NCBI GenBank assembly: GCA_033286805.1
Contig: GCA_033286805.1_4727.1
Strand: one strand, 5' to 3'
Origin: a phage
DNA: 64,000 nt
Both the position numbers and the translations under genes were made by a program. A model generated the notes under the pieces. That model was not told the DNA's origin and searched no databases. It saw only the letters and a program-made list of their open reading frames with translations. This document shows positions 11,993 through 57,998 of the stretch, piece after piece (position 1 is the stretch's first letter; the number at the start of each line of letters is the position of its first letter).

Positions 11993-13789
11993 TCAATCGA
12001 TTATGTCACGATCGTTAATTTCTACAATTTCTTCATCGAATCGACCGACGTCTTTCTTCAAGCCTGCATTGGTTGCTGCAACGTCATTTGCAATTTGTGG
12101 GGTAATGATTAACCGACCACGTTCGTCGATAGGTGCGTACATACTGAACTTTTGACGTCCGGTTGGTTCGGAGTGTGGAAGATTCAGATAGCTTGCACAG
12201 AACGGGATGGAACCACTAACCAAACGACTCTCGTCAGCCAATGCAGCACCGCCTGCGTTTTGGCTCTGGAGAACAACATGCGTGCTCACTTTGAACAGCA
12301 TGCAATCACCCGGTGACTGAATCGATGTTGCCACTTTCTCACGTTTATCACGATTGCTCTGGATATTGAGAATCGCTTCCGTTGCAACTTGATTTCGCAA
12401 CGCCTTCTGCACATCGCGATTGGTCATCTCTTTACGGTTGTTCTGTCGTTTGCCACGTTCTGTGGTTTTAAGATGGAACCCCAGTTTAAAGATGCTTTTA
12501 CGCACATCCTCCATGACATATTCCAACACCATCAATTCCTTACCGAACATCGTCGTGGTGTCAACACGACTCATTTCGATAGTAACATTGTCAATCAGAT
12601 ACGCCATAAATTCGTAGAAGTCGTCGCAAGGAATATTTTCCTGTTTGAACTTCTTCTGTTGAATTTCGTCAACGTAAAGATCGAGACTGTCGATGTGGTG
12701 GTTTACATCACGCAACAAACGCGCATCCGCATTGTTGTTATTAAAGATAATCAAACCGAGTAATGTACGCCAATGGTCTGGCGCATTTGCGAACTCCTCA
12801 ACCGGATAGTCTTCCGGAAAACGATCGTAATAACGGTCGATGAGATATAGGAACGCACCGACAAGGCCAAGAACAATACGTTCCGTGCCTCCACGTCTTA
12901 CAGCAATTTGAATATCAGGATGTTTGTAACGTACAGCGCTAGCGCTACGGCTTTTACCGCTTTTGCTGATACTAAAGCCTTTAGGAATAACCCCCATGGT
13001 GCGATAGATTACCCATTGGTCACGCGGAAAATCACGTTCAGCAAGGTTCCGTCCGGTTACGGCTTCGACACCTGCAAAACGTCGGAAACACTCACCCACC
13101 CCGTACTTCGCAAAGAGATAGTGACCCAGTGTGGTTACGCTGGTGTGGTTGATGTTGTCACCGTTCACTTTACTTTGTTTGGTAAGATGATAGATTTGCG
13201 ACCAGGGTAATGACAGGTAATGACGATAATCGATACCGGTCGGTGTATCATTGCTCAGGAACTGATACGGTGTACGTTTAACCGTGATTTTATCACGCGG
13301 AAGCATGATGAACGCCATGTCTTTCGTGTAACTGATTACGGGGTCAGCGAGTACCGCACTGAGAATGAAGTTCGCACCACGTAGACGCATTTTACCACCC
13401 TGACCTACCGCGGGTAATAGGAGAGGATGTCGGATAATGCAGTAGTCCTTTCCGGGTTCACGACGGTCGCCTGATTCCATCGCGCCGTACCAGCGGAATT
13501 CCAGCATCACCATAAACACATCGGAAGGCGCAAGGTCGAAGGTCAGCTTACCGCTATCCTTCCCTTTGGTTTTCTTTCCTCCGCTTAAGTAGTGGAACTG
13601 TTCGCGGGCCATACAGCGACGCAGGCCATGATACACCAGATCCTTAGGTAAACTATCTTTGCTGTTCCGCCAAAGACGATCAACATAGGACTCAACATCT
13701 TGCATCTTATCGACGACGATGTTGCGTGCTATCTTCTCGTTCATCTTCGGTGCAAGCTCAGCGACAGCTTTGCAGAATCTAGGATCCAT
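11993..13789 (-). CDS. hypothetical protein (598 aa)
   Basis: ORF track start 13792 is GTG; adjacent ATG at 13789 has AAAGGAG RBS at 6 nt spacing. Confidence 0.65.
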   Translation of the reverse strand: MDPRFCKAVAELAPKMNEKIARNIVVDKMQDVESYVDRLWRNSKDSLPKDLVYHGLRRCMAREQFHYLSGGKKTKGKDSGKLTFDLAPSDVFMVMLEFRWYGAMESGDRREPGKDYCIIRHPLLLPAVGQGGKMRLRGANFILSAVLADPVISYTKDMAFIMLPRDKITVKRTPYQFLSNDTPTGIDYRHYLSLPWSQIYHLTKQSKVNGDNINHTSVTTLGHYLFAKYGVGECFRRFAGVEAVTGRNLAERDFPRDQWVIYRTMGVIPKGFSISKSGKSRSASAVRYKHPDIQIAVRRGGTERIVLGLVGAFLYLIDRYYDRFPEDYPVEEFANAPDHWRTLLGLIIFNNNNADARLLRDVNHHIDSLDLYVDEIQQKKFKQENIPCDDFYEFMAYLIDNVTIEMSRVDTTTMFGKELMVLEYVMEDVRKSIFKLGFHLKTTERGKRQNNRKEMTNRDVQKALRNQVATEAILNIQSNRDKREKVATSIQSPGDCMLFKVSTHVVLQSQNAGGAALADESRLVSGSIPFCASYLNLPHSEPTGRQKFSMYAPIDERGRLIITPQIANDVAATNAGLKKDVGRFDEEIVEINDRDIID

Positions 13790-13828
13790 CACACACTCCT
13801 TTCAGAAAGTTGCTTAAGCAGATTAAAG

Positions 13829-21987: not shown

Positions 21988-21993
21988 AATATA

Positions 21994-22626
21994 TCACCAA
22001 TGATCGAAGGAACCAGGAGTGTTACGAACGATCTCAACTTGGAAGGTTATTGGTACTGATGGCAATGAAACATATTCGCGTTGCGATAGCAGGACGTTGT
22101 CTTCTCGCTCATCGATGCGAGTAGAACCCGTCAGAAATTGGAACATAGCGACTTGAAGCTCATCGGTGAAACGGAGGTACTCACCGATGTGTGGTGTTGC
22201 ATCATATCGAATAAGTACGTTGCCAAACCGTCGTGCGATATTTGGAGTATCTGTGAACGAAACAGGGAAATCCAAAGTCATTCCCATCGTTTCACCTGGC
22301 TTCATTTTCCGAATCGACGCAATTGGCGCGTCGAAGATATTCCATTCTTCTTTCATCGTGTCTGGAAACACACCGCGATACAAGATGGTCTTTTGATGAC
22401 GATGAACGGGTTGTAAACGGTCAACCAATATTTTCAAAGGTTTAAGTTCTTCAGCCAATTCATAATCTGCTTGGATGTTCCACTTTGCCGCAAGTTCCAT
22501 TAGGTTGGGATACGCGCTATATTTATTGACGATAGCCCAGTTAACATTACGCAAATCGATAGGAAGGAATTTGATAATTTCCTTGTTGAATATCCATTGG
22601 TTTAATTTCTTAATCTTCGAAAGCAT
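21994..22626 (-). CDS. hypothetical protein (about 210 aa)
   Basis: ORF track 21994..22815 would overlap the upstream gene by 170 nt; internal ATG at 22626 lies 16 nt after the upstream stop; start uncertain. Confidence 0.5.
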   Translation of the reverse strand: MLSKIKKLNQWIFNKEIIKFLPIDLRNVNWAIVNKYSAYPNLMELAAKWNIQADYELAEELKPLKILVDRLQPVHRHQKTILYRGVFPDTMKEEWNIFDAPIASIRKMKPGETMGMTLDFPVSFTDTPNIARRFGNVLIRYDATPHIGEYLRFTDELQVAMFQFLTGSTRIDEREDNVLLSQREYVSLPSVPITFQVEIVRNTPGSFDHW

Positions 22627-22642
22627 GATGTACTCACTACAG

Positions 22643-24010
22643 CTAAACGGTTGGACGAACGGTGTTGTCTTTTTCTGGTGCAAGCCATAACGTGACCGTA
22701 CCATGACATGTCCACTGTGGCTCACGTACAGAAGAACCTGCCATCGTAACAGCACAATCGGTACGCATGATAACCCCGTATGCTTCGCAGAGATTGTTAT
22801 CCTGCATCCACACAACTTTAGCAGGCATGCCGGGATACAACAAATCCATGTTTGCGTATTCCCACACCAACTGCATTGTTCTACCGCGTAATCCAGCAGT
22901 ATTGCTTAATTCACGCCATCGGTTATCGGTTACGCGTCCCATCCCTTTCGCCACCTTCACGTTATCGCTACGTTCTTCAGTTACGTACTCGCTAACGTTT
23001 ACGGTACGACTGATTATCGTATCACCCCCTTTTGATAATGTCATTCCCTGACTCATCTGACTTGCCGAAACAAAACGCCCGCCCGCATTACCTAACAACG
23101 AAGCCGCGTTATTGATGTCGCTTACCGACGCCCCTCTCGTACAGGCAATTTCCACGTATTTGTCACGATTGATCCAGGTCTTGTCCATGCCCGGAAACAT
23201 ATCGGCAGGATAGTTGTAAAAGATAGCCGTGCGCCGACCGTCAGAGAAACGGGTTTCGTCATAGAGAGGATAAATATACAGATACGGAGATTGGTAATAA
23301 CAACCGACATCCGCTGAATAAATACCGACCTGGTTCTGGATTTTGTCTACGAGATCCATTGCGTTGGTACCGTGCGGAAGAATAAGCAACTTGAACAGGT
23401 TGTCGTTATTCGGTGCAACAATATCCACACCCTGCATTTTGAATCCGGTGTCGGCTTCAACCGCAGAAAGTATTTTGCTGAATTCGAGCCGTAACACATC
23501 CAGAACTTTCGACCCGGTATAGTTTTCACCGGTTTCTGATTGCATGAAGCTTTCAAGAACAGGATCGAACAGTTGAAATTGAAGATCGACCATTTGCTCG
23601 TAGTCTTTCTTCGAAGAATCGGTTGCGGTACGTTCGTCGGTAGCAGACATACGACTGTCTACGGTTGTTAAACAAACCGCTCGGTAGACGTAAGCTTGTG
23701 CGGCATCGTCTACGGTTTGGCGTTGTCCGCGCATCAGGCTGTACGCCTGCACGATGATGCGCATTTTAAGTTGTTGTTGGTATGGTAGAATGTATTTTCC
23801 GTAACTGCCCGGTGGGAACTTTACAGAAATATAAAGTTCATCCCCTGCGTTACGTTCATAGTCTCGATACGTGTGGACTTGAGTCACTAAAGGAACAGAC
23901 ACCGTCATTGACGGCGTGATTAATTCCGCGGTGACTTTATACGCAACAGCAACTGCTTCCTGCGCAAATGTACCGATATACCGTCCTAACGGCGTCTGTT
24001 TGTAATCCAT
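22643..24010 (-). CDS. hypothetical virion-module protein (455 aa)
   Basis: ORF track; part of a tightly packed or overlapping minus-strand operon 21994..27859. Confidence 0.65.
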   Translation of the reverse strand: MDYKQTPLGRYIGTFAQEAVAVAYKVTAELITPSMTVSVPLVTQVHTYRDYERNAGDELYISVKFPPGSYGKYILPYQQQLKMRIIVQAYSLMRGQRQTVDDAAQAYVYRAVCLTTVDSRMSATDERTATDSSKKDYEQMVDLQFQLFDPVLESFMQSETGENYTGSKVLDVLRLEFSKILSAVEADTGFKMQGVDIVAPNNDNLFKLLILPHGTNAMDLVDKIQNQVGIYSADVGCYYQSPYLYIYPLYDETRFSDGRRTAIFYNYPADMFPGMDKTWINRDKYVEIACTRGASVSDINNAASLLGNAGGRFVSASQMSQGMTLSKGGDTIISRTVNVSEYVTEERSDNVKVAKGMGRVTDNRWRELSNTAGLRGRTMQLVWEYANMDLLYPGMPAKVVWMQDNNLCEAYGVIMRTDCAVTMAGSSVREPQWTCHGTVTLWLAPEKDNTVRPTV

Positions 24011-53358: not shown

Positions 53359-55110
53359 ATGAGCGAACAAGAACGAAAACCTAAGAAGAAACTGCTCGGT
53401 ATTCAATGTCGACACATCAGCTATAACGAAGCGAACGATGGCAGCAAGAACGACCTCATGATCGCAAAAGAGATCATGTTCTTCGATGATAATACGCAAG
53501 CGACGAATCTTCGCTTCTTCGAGAATTACAAACGTCCGTTTTGGGTGACGGTAGAGAGTAAACGTAAGAACAAATATAAAAAGGAAAGCGAGAAGCTCTC
53601 GCATGTGCGTCGCTATGATGTCCGCCAAAGTGAACTGGTTGAAAAGATCAGTTCGGTGCTTTATAAAAGACGTGCTGATGACAACACCCGTCTACAGCAG
53701 CTTGCACGGAGTCCATACCTCTATGGCACGGACGTTAGCGCCAGCTGTTATTTAAAAACCCAGTACAACACAAAATGGCCGGAATACGTCGATAAATTAC
53801 CCGCTTCCATTGCCTGTTTCGATATCGAAACCGACGTTGTCCACGGGCACGGTAAGATCGTCTGTATGTCTATTACAATGGGATACAATGCGATACTTTG
53901 CTATACCAAGGACTTCGTTGGTCATATTCCGAATGCGATTGAGAAAACCCATGAGAAGATTCGATATTACCTGGCCGAACGTCTGAATACCAAAGAAGAT
54001 CCTCATGCGTTCGAAAAATATCATTACGATGTGCGAATCGTAGAAAGTCCGGCGCAAGCAGTCATCCAGTGCATGCAGAAGGTTCACGAATGGCAGCCGG
54101 ATTATCTCCTTGGCTGGAATATCGCGTTCGATATTCCGCGCATGCTCCAGGCACTGAACGAGGAAGGGTATCGTCCCGAGGATGTTTTCTCCGATCCTCG
54201 TGTACCACCTAAATATCGTATTGCTCGCTGGGTACCACCGAAGACAGACAAGGTATCTGCTTCAGGTCGTAAAACCAACCTTACCCTTGAGCAGACCTGG
54301 CCGATGTTTTATACGATGGCCACATACCAGGTTATGGATGCGATGTGCGGTTATAAGTTCGTTCGTTTAGGAAGACCGGATGAAGGACGCTATTCACTCG
54401 ATGCGGTGTTAGAGCGAAATAAATGCCATACGAAATTAAAAGCGATTCCTGGTACAGAGGGGTTCACGGAGCTTGCGTGGCACGAAGAGATGCAAACGAA
54501 CCATCAAATCGACTACGGCGTATATAACCTTTGGGATAACCAGGGTATCGAGGCGTTGGACCAGAAAACAAAAGACTATTCGATGACCATCCCTATTCGT
54601 TTGGCGGCGTCGGATTTGAAAGATTTCAGTTCTAACCCTAAACGTATCTGTGACAAACTTTTCTTCGTTTATCTTAACCGTGGGGAAGTCATGGGATGCA
54701 CTGCCGACGACATGACCCAGGAAGAAGATAAGTGGGTTATCTCACGAACCGGACATATCGTCACATTACCGTGCGATCTCATGGCGGACAACGGCATTCA
54801 TCTCTTCTGGGATATGCCGAACCTGAGAAGTTATATCCGTCTATTCGTTGCAGACCTCGACATTAGCAGTTCATACCCAAACGGGCAGATCCTGTTGAAT
54901 TTATCCAGAGCATGTGTTTTTCGTGAGCTCTCGCGCATTGAAGGCGTCTCTGACTATCAATTCAGGAAGTTAGGTATCAACTTTATTACCGGAGGTAAAA
55001 CGAACGCTGTAGACTTCTGTAGAATCGTTTATAAAGCACCATCGATGTTCGAACTCTTAGAACATTTCGATGCAACGCGTCCAAAAGGGGAAGCGCGGAC
55101 CATCGAATGA
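53359..55110 (+). CDS. family-B DNA polymerase, N-terminal fragment (3'-5' exonuclease domain plus palm motif A) of a split polymerase
   Basis: Exo I FDIETD (aa 154-159), Exo II GWNIAFDIP (aa 252-260), Exo III YNLWD (aa 389-393), motif A DISSSYPNGQILLNLS (aa 501-516); gene ends about 80 aa after motif A with no motif B or C. Confidence 0.6.
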   Translation: MSEQERKPKKKLLGIQCRHISYNEANDGSKNDLMIAKEIMFFDDNTQATNLRFFENYKRPFWVTVESKRKNKYKKESEKLSHVRRYDVRQSELVEKISSVLYKRRADDNTRLQQLARSPYLYGTDVSASCYLKTQYNTKWPEYVDKLPASIACFDIETDVVHGHGKIVCMSITMGYNAILCYTKDFVGHIPNAIEKTHEKIRYYLAERLNTKEDPHAFEKYHYDVRIVESPAQAVIQCMQKVHEWQPDYLLGWNIAFDIPRMLQALNEEGYRPEDVFSDPRVPPKYRIARWVPPKTDKVSASGRKTNLTLEQTWPMFYTMATYQVMDAMCGYKFVRLGRPDEGRYSLDAVLERNKCHTKLKAIPGTEGFTELAWHEEMQTNHQIDYGVYNLWDNQGIEALDQKTKDYSMTIPIRLAASDLKDFSSNPKRICDKLFFVYLNRGEVMGCTADDMTQEEDKWVISRTGHIVTLPCDLMADNGIHLFWDMPNLRSYIRLFVADLDISSSYPNGQILLNLSRACVFRELSRIEGVSDYQFRKLGINFITGGKTNAVDFCRIVYKAPSMFELLEHFDATRPKGEARTIE

Positions 55111-55157
55111 ATCAAGTATGTTGATCCTCGTTTAACAAAAAAGAAAACGCATGCGAA

Positions 55158-55196
55158 GCCCCTCCCCCTGGCGGAAGCCGGAGGGAGGGGTGGAGG
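55158..55196. terminator. GC-rich imperfect hairpin with T-run, shared terminator for the polymerase fragment (plus) and gene 55209..55682 (minus)
   Basis: CCTCCC...GGGAGG arms followed by TTTTATGTGTTTTT on the plus strand. Confidence 0.5.
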
Positions 55197-55208
55197 TTTT
55201 ATGTGTTT

Positions 55209-55682
55209 TTAATTATTGTTGGTGGGGTTATCGTCCGGTTTATATTCAATGCCGTAGGCGACGTAACGGTCTGTTGTATGGACGACAAGCGAGATAGGGA
55301 AATCATAATGCATAGTTTTGTCTCGAACGAGCTGAGTAAAGAGATCCATATAACGTATTAAGTCTTCACTGGTGTAATCAGAAGGGAAGAAGACATCGAT
55401 GGTTATTGAATCTTCATAGAGGCGTATGACCAACTTATCCAGAAGGTCGGCATATTGGTTAGCCGGGGTGACGTCCAGCTGACAGATGTCACGATCTCCT
55501 TCGTCTCGCGATACCCACATCGTGGTATCCTGTAATGAGGTTTCAAGGATCTCGAAAACACATTTTGCTGTAAGTCTTAGTTTATTTGTTACGTCATGGT
55601 TAGGTGAATAATGGTCACGGATGTTTTTCACTGCGTCTTTGATAGAGAAAGTCATTGTTGCTGTTCCTGTTATAGTCAACAT
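55209..55682 (-). CDS. small hypothetical protein (157 aa), member of a small paralog family
   Basis: ORF track; C-terminal motif ...DFPISL...YGIEYKPDDN shared with the 152-aa and 164-aa genes. Confidence 0.55.
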   Translation of the reverse strand: MLTITGTATMTFSIKDAVKNIRDHYSPNHDVTNKLRLTAKCVFEILETSLQDTTMWVSRDEGDRDICQLDVTPANQYADLLDKLVIRLYEDSITIDVFFPSDYTSEDLIRYMDLFTQLVRDKTMHYDFPISLVVHTTDRYVAYGIEYKPDDNPTNNN

Positions 55683-55685
55683 ATA

Positions 55686-55716
55686 GCCCTTCCCTAGCCG
55701 TCAAGGCCGGGGAAGG
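55686..55716 (-). terminator. GC-rich hairpin (CCTTCCC...GGGAAGG)
   Basis: inverted repeat between the small genes; followed on the plus strand by GGTATGTTT. Confidence 0.45.
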
Positions 55717-55732
55717 GTATGTTTACGTGTAA

Positions 55733-56128
55733 TTACTTTTTGGCGTCCGTTGGTGATTCAGTATGTTTCTCGCTGCTGGTGTACCAGAGTAGGTATGTCG
55801 GGAAAAGATTAACCTCTAAGCTAAACGGGATATTATATTTTTCTTCCATTTTGCAGAGATGTTCTTTAAGTAAATCCCTTGCTTCTTTGTTACGGCGAGC
55901 GGAGTGCCAATGTAGTTCTTCGTTCTCCTTTACCAGTACTTCTACAATGATACGCTGCTCGTGAACCTCGGTTTTCACAATAGCAAGTAAATCGTTACTA
56001 TCGAAACGGGTAAAACGAATGTACGAACCAGGCGTTTTTTCTTGTTTAACGATATCGATCATAGTAGAAATGTGTGGGTGATCGATGTTGTCGTTAACTG
56101 CTTTAACGATGGAATCTACAACGCTCAT
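55733..56128 (-). CDS. small hypothetical protein (131 aa)
   Basis: ORF track; ATG start. Confidence 0.5.
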   Translation of the reverse strand: MSVVDSIVKAVNDNIDHPHISTMIDIVKQEKTPGSYIRFTRFDSNDLLAIVKTEVHEQRIIVEVLVKENEELHWHSARRNKEARDLLKEHLCKMEEKYNIPFSLEVNLFPTYLLWYTSSEKHTESPTDAKK

Positions 56129-56168
56129 TTTTTTTTATCCTTAATGTTATCGGTTTAGAAATAATATT

Positions 56169-56933
56169 TTATTTGCTGTTATCTTTATCGACAGTTGTTA
56201 CCCATGATGGGAAAGCCGGATGGAAACAGAGCGTGAACGTAACCTTCGTATCGTATTTAAACGCACGGTCCACTAGCCGAGTATCGAACGTTTCCCTTAG
56301 ACCGTCATCATCGTTATCGATGACAGCCATATCCCTTAATATCCCAAGCACGTTAACGCCATCTGGTGTCTGGGTTACAACAAGTCGTCGTAATGGTCCG
56401 CATGTATAATCACGTACGTATCCTTTCTTCGGGTCCGATACTCTATTTAACGCATCGTGATTTTCGATGAATTCATCGGCAATACGAGTGATGTGTTCCC
56501 TTGCTTTATCTGGATCGTATTCTGCTAATAGTTCCTTCGTGTCGAATGTTATCGCGTTATTAGCATTCGATTCAGAAGGGAAACATAAAACTAAACGAAC
56601 AGGGTATTCGTATTGATCTGTTCTTGTTTCGAAAGCATTAGCTAAACACGGCTTGTATGCCTTTGCGTCGACATTGTCCAAACACGGATGCAATAATGCA
56701 TGAATAACGGCACCATCATCAGTTAAACCGAATTCCATAAATTGTGTTTCATCGGTGTCTGTTACGGTTTTCTGAAGGTACGCTTTACCGTTAACAATAT
56801 CGGTATCCCACATATCGTCGTTTAACGATTCTTCAAACTTATCGAATATATGGTTTACGAGATTGACGAGTTCATCAATACGGCACTGTTGGTTGAATTC
56901 GATTAATCGTTGAACTTTATCTTTGATAGACAT
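56169..56933 (-). CDS. hypothetical protein (254 aa), possibly a duplicated form of the small paralog fold
   Basis: ORF track; contains ...YEYPVRLVLCFP... and ...VTFTLCFHP... resembling the DFPI(S/T)L motif twice. Confidence 0.5.
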   Translation of the reverse strand: MSIKDKVQRLIEFNQQCRIDELVNLVNHIFDKFEESLNDDMWDTDIVNGKAYLQKTVTDTDETQFMEFGLTDDGAVIHALLHPCLDNVDAKAYKPCLANAFETRTDQYEYPVRLVLCFPSESNANNAITFDTKELLAEYDPDKAREHITRIADEFIENHDALNRVSDPKKGYVRDYTCGPLRRLVVTQTPDGVNVLGILRDMAVIDNDDDGLRETFDTRLVDRAFKYDTKVTFTLCFHPAFPSWVTTVDKDNSK

Positions 56934-56935
56934 GA

Positions 56936-57394
56936 TTACCCATTAGCTCCTTCTTCGTCTGGAGAGTATTCCATCGTGTAGAATTCATAACCGTCGGAAA
57001 ACTTGAGTGTTAATGTAATAGGGAAATCGCACGGCATAGCTGATTTCGTAAATGCGTTATTAGCAACATCAGCCAACCGACGTATAGCATCAGTCCCGCT
57101 GACGCTGAATGGTAGTTGTATGTTGATAAGGATGCGGTGCTTGTAAACATAGAAAACAACGGTGCTGTCAAGATAAACGCTATGGAACGGTATTGTTGGG
57201 ATGCGTTCCACGATGGTAAAATACGTCCCGTCATTATCGCTATGTCCCACCGACCAAATATCGGATTTGCGTAGATTTTGTTTGAGAGATTCGATACTTC
57301 GAGTGACGGTATCAGCAACAGGTGCGACGTAAGCGTCTTTATGCGAGTCGAAAAGTTCGTTGACGTTAGATTCGAATGAATACATTGTTGCCAT
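56936..57394 (-). CDS. small hypothetical protein (152 aa), small paralog family
   Basis: ORF track; C-terminal ...CDFPITLTLKFSDGYEFYTMEYSPDEE. Confidence 0.55.
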   Translation of the reverse strand: MATMYSFESNVNELFDSHKDAYVAPVADTVTRSIESLKQNLRKSDIWSVGHSDNDGTYFTIVERIPTIPFHSVYLDSTVVFYVYKHRILINIQLPFSVSGTDAIRRLADVANNAFTKSAMPCDFPITLTLKFSDGYEFYTMEYSPDEEGANG

Positions 57395-57460
57395 TATTCT
57401 ACCTCAATGGTTTAACCGATACGTGCCCCACCTAACAAGGGACACGTTATCGTTGATTAA

Positions 57461-57955
57461 TTACTCTTCTGTGTTTTCATTGTCTGGATCGTAGTGGAAT
57501 TCGAACAGCCCTGAACCGTCGTGCCCGTTGATTGTTAGTATAACGGGCATATCGAATCCTCGGACACGCGAATGAAAACACTGTGCTAATTTTAGTTTGG
57601 CATATGCCGCTATTTCATTGATGGCAATACACGACTCACCTGTTATACTCAGTATAACGTCGATACTAATGATGTTATCATGCAACGCAAAACGCCAGCG
57701 ATCGATACGATTATTATCTTTATCGGTTGTCTCGTTTACGAGATAGACTTTATCATCAACCGACAAAGCGGGACTCCAGCAACGTTCGTTTATTAAATTC
57801 GCCTGGAGTTTTAGTATCGTCTGATCGATAATATCCCAACACGTAACCAGCGTGGTGTCAGGCACTGAGTAGAGAAGGGCGTGCACTTTATCCTTTATTT
57901 TAAGTGCTTCCGCAGGACGTCCGCAAATACCATGCATTTCAACTTTCTTATTCAT
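57461..57955 (-). CDS. small hypothetical protein (about 164 aa), small paralog family
   Basis: ORF track start 57961 is GTG; ATG at 57955; C-terminal ...FDMPVILTINGHDGSGLFEFHYDPDNEN. Confidence 0.5.
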   Translation of the reverse strand: MNKKVEMHGICGRPAEALKIKDKVHALLYSVPDTTLVTCWDIIDQTILKLQANLINERCWSPALSVDDKVYLVNETTDKDNNRIDRWRFALHDNIISIDVILSITGESCIAINEIAAYAKLKLAQCFHSRVRGFDMPVILTINGHDGSGLFEFHYDPDNENTEE

Positions 57956-57998
57956 ATTCACTTCTTTCTTAATCTAAATGTTAGTTGGGGTGGGATGC

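Follow-up and report, generated by a model that had tools for sequence, protein, structure and literature searches.

The polymerase gene and its flanks

The window, that is, the whole 64-kb stretch of phage DNA analysed here, carries on its plus strand an open reading frame that opens with an ATG, comprises 583 codons and is flanked on both sides by minus-strand genes (Table 1). The window is colinear with positions 27822-91489 of the genome of Escherichia phage vB_EcoM_Goslar, an E. coli jumbo phage of the phiKZ-like, nucleus-forming kind, at 94-98% nucleotide identity bar four local differences, and the gene itself is 96% nucleotide-identical to that of Goslar. The features described below point to one half of a split family B DNA polymerase (PolB), and we refer to the gene product as subunit 1.

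Table 1. Positions in the window of the polymerase gene and of the features discussed in the text
Feature	Coordinates	Strand	Remarks
Subunit 1 gene, split family B DNA polymerase	53359..55110	+	583 aa; PHROG 3011, Foldseek, hhalign, tblastn
Exo I motif FDIETD	53818..53835	+	aa 154-159; D155 and E157 invariant
Exo II motif GWNIAFDIP	54112..54138	+	aa 252-260; N254 and D258 invariant; T4 counterpart GWNIEGFDVP
Exo III motif YNLWD	54523..54537	+	aa 389-393; Y389 and D393 invariant; T4 counterpart YNIID
Polymerase motif A, ADLDISSSYPNGQILLNLS	54850..54906	+	D499 and D501 invariant; Y506 and P507 conserved at 90% or above
Cluster of synonymous differences from Goslar	54799..54918	+	29 in 120 nt (ORF nt 1441-1560); the rest of the gene has about 2 per 60 nt
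Empty intron site	54855..54856	+	between codons D499 and L500; the 1762-nt group I intron of Goslar inserts here
GC-rich hairpin followed by U-rich tract	55158..55190		between the convergent ends of the polymerase gene and ORF 55209..55682 (-)

The hairpin downstream of the gene is a probable two-way terminator, and the stretch in which it lies (55140-55215) has a folding energy of -40.8 kcal/mol (z -5.6). It was missed by a simple terminator scan, and around the subunit 1 gene a scan for sigma-70 promoters and simple terminators returned nothing above chance; phiKZ-like phages use RNA polymerases of their own. The next genes, described in a first-pass annotation as small and on the opposite strand, are just that in the list of open reading frames. 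These small minus-strand genes (55204-56949; 55209-57961) differ from the set found in Goslar, and blastp reveals weak paralogy among ORFs 55209, 56936 and 57461 (E 1e-9 to 6e-4), a relationship that suggests a variable multigene family.

Two further segments of the window depart from Goslar. A 651-nt segment at 21993-22643 is without counterpart there; the minus-strand ORF that it contains (21994..22626, about 210 aa) draws no match from Pfam and no more than a weak one from a PHROG of unknown function. Inspected by eye, the ORF's sequence seems to hold a YRG / SFTDT / QRE pattern reminiscent of R-S-E ADP-ribosyltransferases. [quoted passage not shown]

Motif content and completeness of the first half

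The first-pass annotation had assigned to the 583-aa product the exonuclease motifs Exo I, II and III together with motif A of the polymerase palm, and all four are present as it had quoted them. We aligned 41 relatives of the window protein, ranging from 33 to 66% identity, and found the key residues of each motif to be invariant or, for Y506 and P507, nearly so (Table 1); given this invariance, the motifs are not chance look-alikes. The exonuclease residues conform to the patterns DxE (Exo I), Nx2-3[FY]D (Exo II) and Yx3D (Exo III). The motif A pattern Dx2SLYPS is represented by D501-ISSS-Y506-P507, which aligns with FDLTSLYPS of T4, and residues 501-516 (nt 54859-54906) read DISSSYPNGQILLNLS. 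Conservation across the family is not confined to the exonuclease, as about 120 residues past it are conserved in the same alignment. The protein ends 82 aa after D501, in agreement with the roughly 80 aa estimated at first, and neither motif B (Kx3NSxYG) nor motif C (DTDS) is found in the protein or anywhere in the 64-kb window.

The absence of motifs B and C is the one observation that would favour an artefact or a pseudogene, in which decay, a frameshift or faulty assembly had shortened a full-length PolB. However, the protein matches the profile of PHROG 3011 ('DNA polymerase', 576 positions) from end to end, residues 8-574 falling on profile positions 5-568 at an E-value of 5e-178. Its length is also typical of the family: among the 209 relatives found in a large protein collection, 120 were listed, most of them at about 555-640 aa (range 457-703), and none of these 120 is long enough to be a fused polymerase. 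The identical 583-aa protein is encoded on three independent contigs, it agrees at 582 of 583 positions with the spliced product of Goslar gp068 (see below), and no frame downstream or elsewhere in the window has coding potential for motifs B and C. The end-to-end profile match, the family-typical length and the three identical copies together establish that ORF 53359..55110 is no product of sequencing truncation and no truncation artefact, and we regard a decayed or misassembled full-length gene as practically negligible. The split PolB proposed in the first-pass annotation thus stands against the sequencing error that had been considered as its alternative.

Fold of the first half

The match of subunit 1 to the Pfam family DNA_pol_B_exo1 (PF03104) is sub-threshold (15.6 bits against a gathering cut-off of 23, E 0.011), because the subunit 1 family has diverged beyond the reach of the Pfam model; NCBIfam holds no model for either polymerase half, and a sequence search of the PDB found no relative of either. 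The single-chain AlphaFold2 model of the window protein has a mean pLDDT of 83 and is confident over residues 7-450. Searching the PDB with this model by Foldseek retrieved RB69/T4 gp43, Pol epsilon and E. coli Pol II at E-values of 1e-12 to 1e-10, with about 455 aligned columns and a TMq of about 0.46 that cover the N-terminal and exonuclease part only.

Profile comparison extends the relationship to motif A. When the alignment of 41 relatives was compared with T4 gp43 by hhalign, T4 residues 138-431 were matched at a probability of 95.8% and an E-value of 7e-9, with Exo II, Exo III and motif A in register (ADLDISSSYPNGQILLNLS in subunit 1 against SFDLTSLYPSIIRQVNIS in T4). In the motif A pairing, ADLDISSSYPNGQILLNLSRAC of subunit 1 stands opposite SFDLTSLYPSIIRQVNISPET of T4 gp43, and D501 pairs with the motif A aspartate of the T4 enzyme. 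The only poorly folded part of the subunit 1 model, residues 461-545 with a pLDDT below 50, surrounds motif A, which would be expected if the motif A strand needs the motif C hairpin of a partner.

A second half at a distant locus in Goslar

That the remaining half of the polymerase must be encoded elsewhere had been proposed from the window sequence, and the full annotation of Goslar contains one further 'DNA polymerase', gp244 (NC_048170 174314-176467, minus strand, 717 aa), which adjoins the chimallin gene and lies about 95 kb from gp068, the Goslar orthologue of the window gene. This protein, to which the search for an ORF with motifs B and C and KKRY leads, is assigned to PF20286 of Pfam ('Divergent Family B DNA polymerase') with an E-value of 2e-204. 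All of its 112 relatives measure about 690-800 aa, many of them also match PF00136, and none is a fused polymerase. In the gp244 family, motif B (KLDNNSLSG) has K152, N156 and G160 as invariant residues and also includes S157; motif C, S404-D-T-D-S408, is invariant, as are K484 and Y486 of the KxY motif. gp244 has no motif A, nor does its family have any invariant acidic residue upstream of the finger helices.

The predicted structure of gp244 (pLDDT 90) consists of two long finger helices (residues 110-163), a helical insert of about 220 residues, a motif C hairpin and a thumb. All top Foldseek matches of this model are RB69/T4 gp43, with scores that are marginal (E about 1e-3, TM 0.2-0.27). 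Similarly, hhalign places SDTDS and KHY of the gp244 family on GDTDS and KKRY of T4 gp43 with an E-value of 0.002 and a probability of only 14%.

Both half-profiles were searched against all stop-to-stop frames of at least 60 aa in Goslar and in the window. The first-half profile matches only the window ORF and the two exons of Goslar, and the second-half profile matches only gp244, with nothing in any frame of the 64-kb window. A tblastn search with T4 gp43 finds nothing significant that would represent another PolB in either sequence. The division into two genes is thus not offset by a full-length PolB elsewhere in Goslar or in the window, the other circumstance that the first-pass annotation had weighed against it. 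The window is the equivalent of Goslar 27.8-91.5 kb, and the partner locus at Goslar 174-176 kb falls outside it, so we infer the presence of the second half in this phage's own genome from Goslar and from the matching numbers of phage records given below.

Another ORF of the window, 11993..13792 (minus strand, 599 aa), was considered as the missing half and rejected, since it is homologous to phiKZ gp123, which belongs to the non-virion RNA polymerase as one of its subunits (PDB 7ogp_E, E 6e-41; PHROG 2943). Its Goslar orthologue, gp039, is annotated merely as 'polymerase'. In Goslar-like contigs a small PF20287 (SH3DP) gene (L009 2290-2703) is located upstream of the PF20286 gene, and an SH3 protein has been proposed as a possible further subunit of the polymerase (Iyer et al.; PMC7824862).

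Intron polymorphism at motif A

The window allele is intron-less. In Goslar, the orthologous gene has the same flanking genes and is interrupted after D499, so that it is annotated as a 499-aa protein (gp068) followed by an HNH/NUMOD1 endonuclease (gp069). An Rfam group I intron core lies just past gp068 (E 1.8e-9, 44.7 bits), and excising Goslar 81187-82948 (L001 7498-9259; 1762 nt) yields a 583-aa product. At the boundaries so defined, the last base of the 5' exon is U and the last base of the intron is G. The intron is located two codons ahead of the catalytic D501 and is without annotation in the record, which is why gp068 is listed as a truncated protein. The window, in keeping with the first-pass annotation, which saw no sign of an intron or a homing endonuclease downstream of the gene, has no Rfam match to an intron RNA at any position and no endonuclease ORF within or after the subunit 1 gene. 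Around the empty site, synonymous differences from Goslar are clustered (Table 1), a pattern that would be expected of co-conversion or of escape from a homing endonuclease and that may have arisen in either way.

Goslar is not the only relative with an intron here. In PhiPA3 (HQ630627), a group I intron that scores 71.7 bits, above the Rfam gathering score, lies between gp085 and gp084 (L013 4794-5099); the intron begins at the end of gp085, and the match of gp085 to the window protein ends at motif A (aa 501). Moreover, about one fifth of the listed metagenomic relatives are short proteins of about 457-545 aa, with a query coverage of only about 77-87%, and the two short relatives shown in the alignment end just past DLDVxS. 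These short relatives and the PhiPA3 gene suggest that introns may have been inserted recurrently in or beside motif A among the relatives. With one group I intron inside motif A (Goslar) and another at or beside it (PhiPA3), the motif A site appears to be constrained.

Introns in the subunit 1 gene of relatives, along with the existence of intein-split PolBs such as that of jumbo phage MIJ3 (PMC6892783), raise the question of whether a split intein or RNA trans-splicing unites the separately expressed halves into a full-length polymerase. However, Pfam searches up to an E-value of 1 reveal no Hint or intein domain in either half, the sole intein match being non-significant (E 0.51) and located inside the exonuclease domain. 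In both alignments and models, the C-terminus of the first half and the N-terminus of the second are ordinary conserved helical sequence. In addition, the ORF closes with a stop codon that is followed by a strong hairpin. With no intein or Hint domain, ordinary termini and no intron RNA in the window, covalent joining of the halves is highly improbable.

Distribution of the two halves across phages

Searches of 50,697 phage records by tblastn located each of the two halves in 291 of them, with equal counts per genus for the two (Pseudomonas 81, Erwinia 62, Salmonella 24, Vibrio 23, and others), and the host counts of the two halves are likewise equal. The two genes are far apart in Goslar and in those records that have positions in both sampled lists; in phiKZ, for instance, gp082 lies at 78 kb and gp050 at 41 kb, and in OBP the corresponding positions are 79 kb and 42 kb. 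RefSeq names phiKZ gp050 and gp082 alike 'DNA polymerase'.

The split arrangement is in fact already known for phiKZ-like phages, and the window copy is an intron-less, Goslar-like allele of it. A passage of PMC5105663 that refers to Cornelissen et al. 2012 uses the term 'split subunit DNA polymerase' for phiKZ. Iyer et al. 2021 (PMC7824862) defined the divergent PolB clade, treated the second half as the polymerase and described the exonuclease as separately encoded, possibly a protein of its own that associates with it. A 2024 preprint that regards phiKZ gp50 and gp82 alike as DNA polymerase localizes the two within or beside the phage nucleus at 40 min (bioRxiv 10.1101/2024.03.24.586471).

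Discussion

We conclude that the gene very probably encodes subunit 1 of a two-subunit replicative family B polymerase typical of phiKZ-like (Chimalliviridae) jumbo phages, in which the active site is contributed by both chains. From subunit 1 would come an active 3'-5' exonuclease for proofreading, together with the N-terminal domain and the palm's first segment, which bears motif A (D501, Y506). Subunit 2 (gp244 in Goslar, gp050 in phiKZ), encoded far off, would provide the fingers with motif B, the long helical insert, the remainder of the palm with motif C (SDTDS), the KxY motif and the thumb. The two subunits would be made separately and associate non-covalently, and the two-metal site would be assembled from the motif A aspartate of subunit 1 and the motif C aspartates of subunit 2. 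This picture is based on domain content, motif conservation, similarity of fold, the matching distribution of the two halves and the lack of fusion or splicing signals, from which association of the chains and a shared active site would follow. In particular, the presence of motif A on what might be called the 'exonuclease' subunit implies a shared active site. Since subunit 1 keeps the motif A aspartate without exception and subunit 2 offers no substitute, an obligate two-subunit polymerase is the best reading of these data.

The main alternative regards the window protein as a stand-alone proofreading exonuclease, loosely tied to a PF20286 polymerase that is sufficient by itself, with the motif A stretch as a non-catalytic relic. 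Such a division of labour would be in line with Iyer et al. 2021 (PMC7824862), who describe a group 1 polymerase without fused exonuclease and 'such a protein encoded elsewhere', an arrangement for which a shared active site is not required; the poor modelling of the motif A region in subunit 1 would fit it as well. However, the pattern of conservation argues against it. D499, D501, Y506 and P507 are invariant or nearly so even among relatives at 33-41% identity, the alignment with T4 motif A includes the NISxET extension, and the roughly 120 residues beyond the exonuclease are kept family-wide. Furthermore, the PF20286 family does not offer an invariant acidic residue before the fingers that could replace the motif A aspartate, and group I introns have settled in or at this very stretch in two genera. 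Judged from these comparisons, a mere accessory exonuclease is improbable, and a polymerase whose active site is shared between the subunits is favoured.

The enzyme is the replicase of the nucleus-forming jumbo phages, and the window gene deserves the name DNA polymerase subunit 1 (exonuclease and motif A) rather than 'hypothetical protein' or truncated polymerase. One may further speculate that the split itself is functional, so that activity is licensed only in the phage nucleus, and that the intron-less, recoded allele of the window is resistant to the HNH endonuclease of Goslar. We consider this combined proposal rather unlikely. Were it true, then with motif A and motifs B and C on separate chains there would be no polymerase activity before both subunits had been imported from the cytoplasm, thus restricting synthesis and proofreading to the phage nucleus. 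The intron-less allele would in turn bear witness to competition, by way of the intron, among Goslar-like phages infecting the same cell.

Comparison with known systems places the enzyme of the window closest to hand in phiKZ, whose gp082, the orthologue of the window protein, and gp050 (NC_004629) belong to the same two protein families (39% and 32% identity by tblastn, at near full coverage), show the same division of motifs and are encoded tens of kb apart, as are the Goslar genes. phiKZ gp082 has 638 aa compared with the 583 aa found here, the differences being those of sequence divergence only. Equivalent pairs are present in OBP, 201phi2-1, SPN3US and the RAY-like phages of Erwinia. Relative to the single-chain enzymes of T4 and RB69 (gp43), the two proteins divide between them what is otherwise one polypeptide: subunit 1 has the same fold over the N-terminal and exonuclease part, and Exo II, Exo III and motif A of gp43 align with subunit 1, whereas its motif C and KKRY align with the partner. 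The second protein differs from gp43 in having about 110 extra N-terminal residues and the helical insert of about 220 residues, which lies between the fingers and motif C (PMC7824862). Where gp43 is a single chain of about 900 aa, the phiKZ-type enzyme has its break past motif A and ahead of the fingers. In the divided PolBs of archaea and magroviruses, the break falls later in the catalytic domain than this gap between motifs A and B. The PolB pieces of Nanoarchaeum equitans carry split-intein halves and are ligated. Both N. equitans and phage MIJ3 (PMC6892783) likewise use two genes for PolB, but theirs are intein-split, and the MIJ3 pieces, too, are split-intein halves that become ligated, in contrast to the window protein and gp244, neither of which contains an intein. 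In the PolBs of Methanothermobacter thermautotrophicus and of the group B magroviruses (PMC5434244), the catalytic domain is likewise divided between two genes, as it is in the phages described here.
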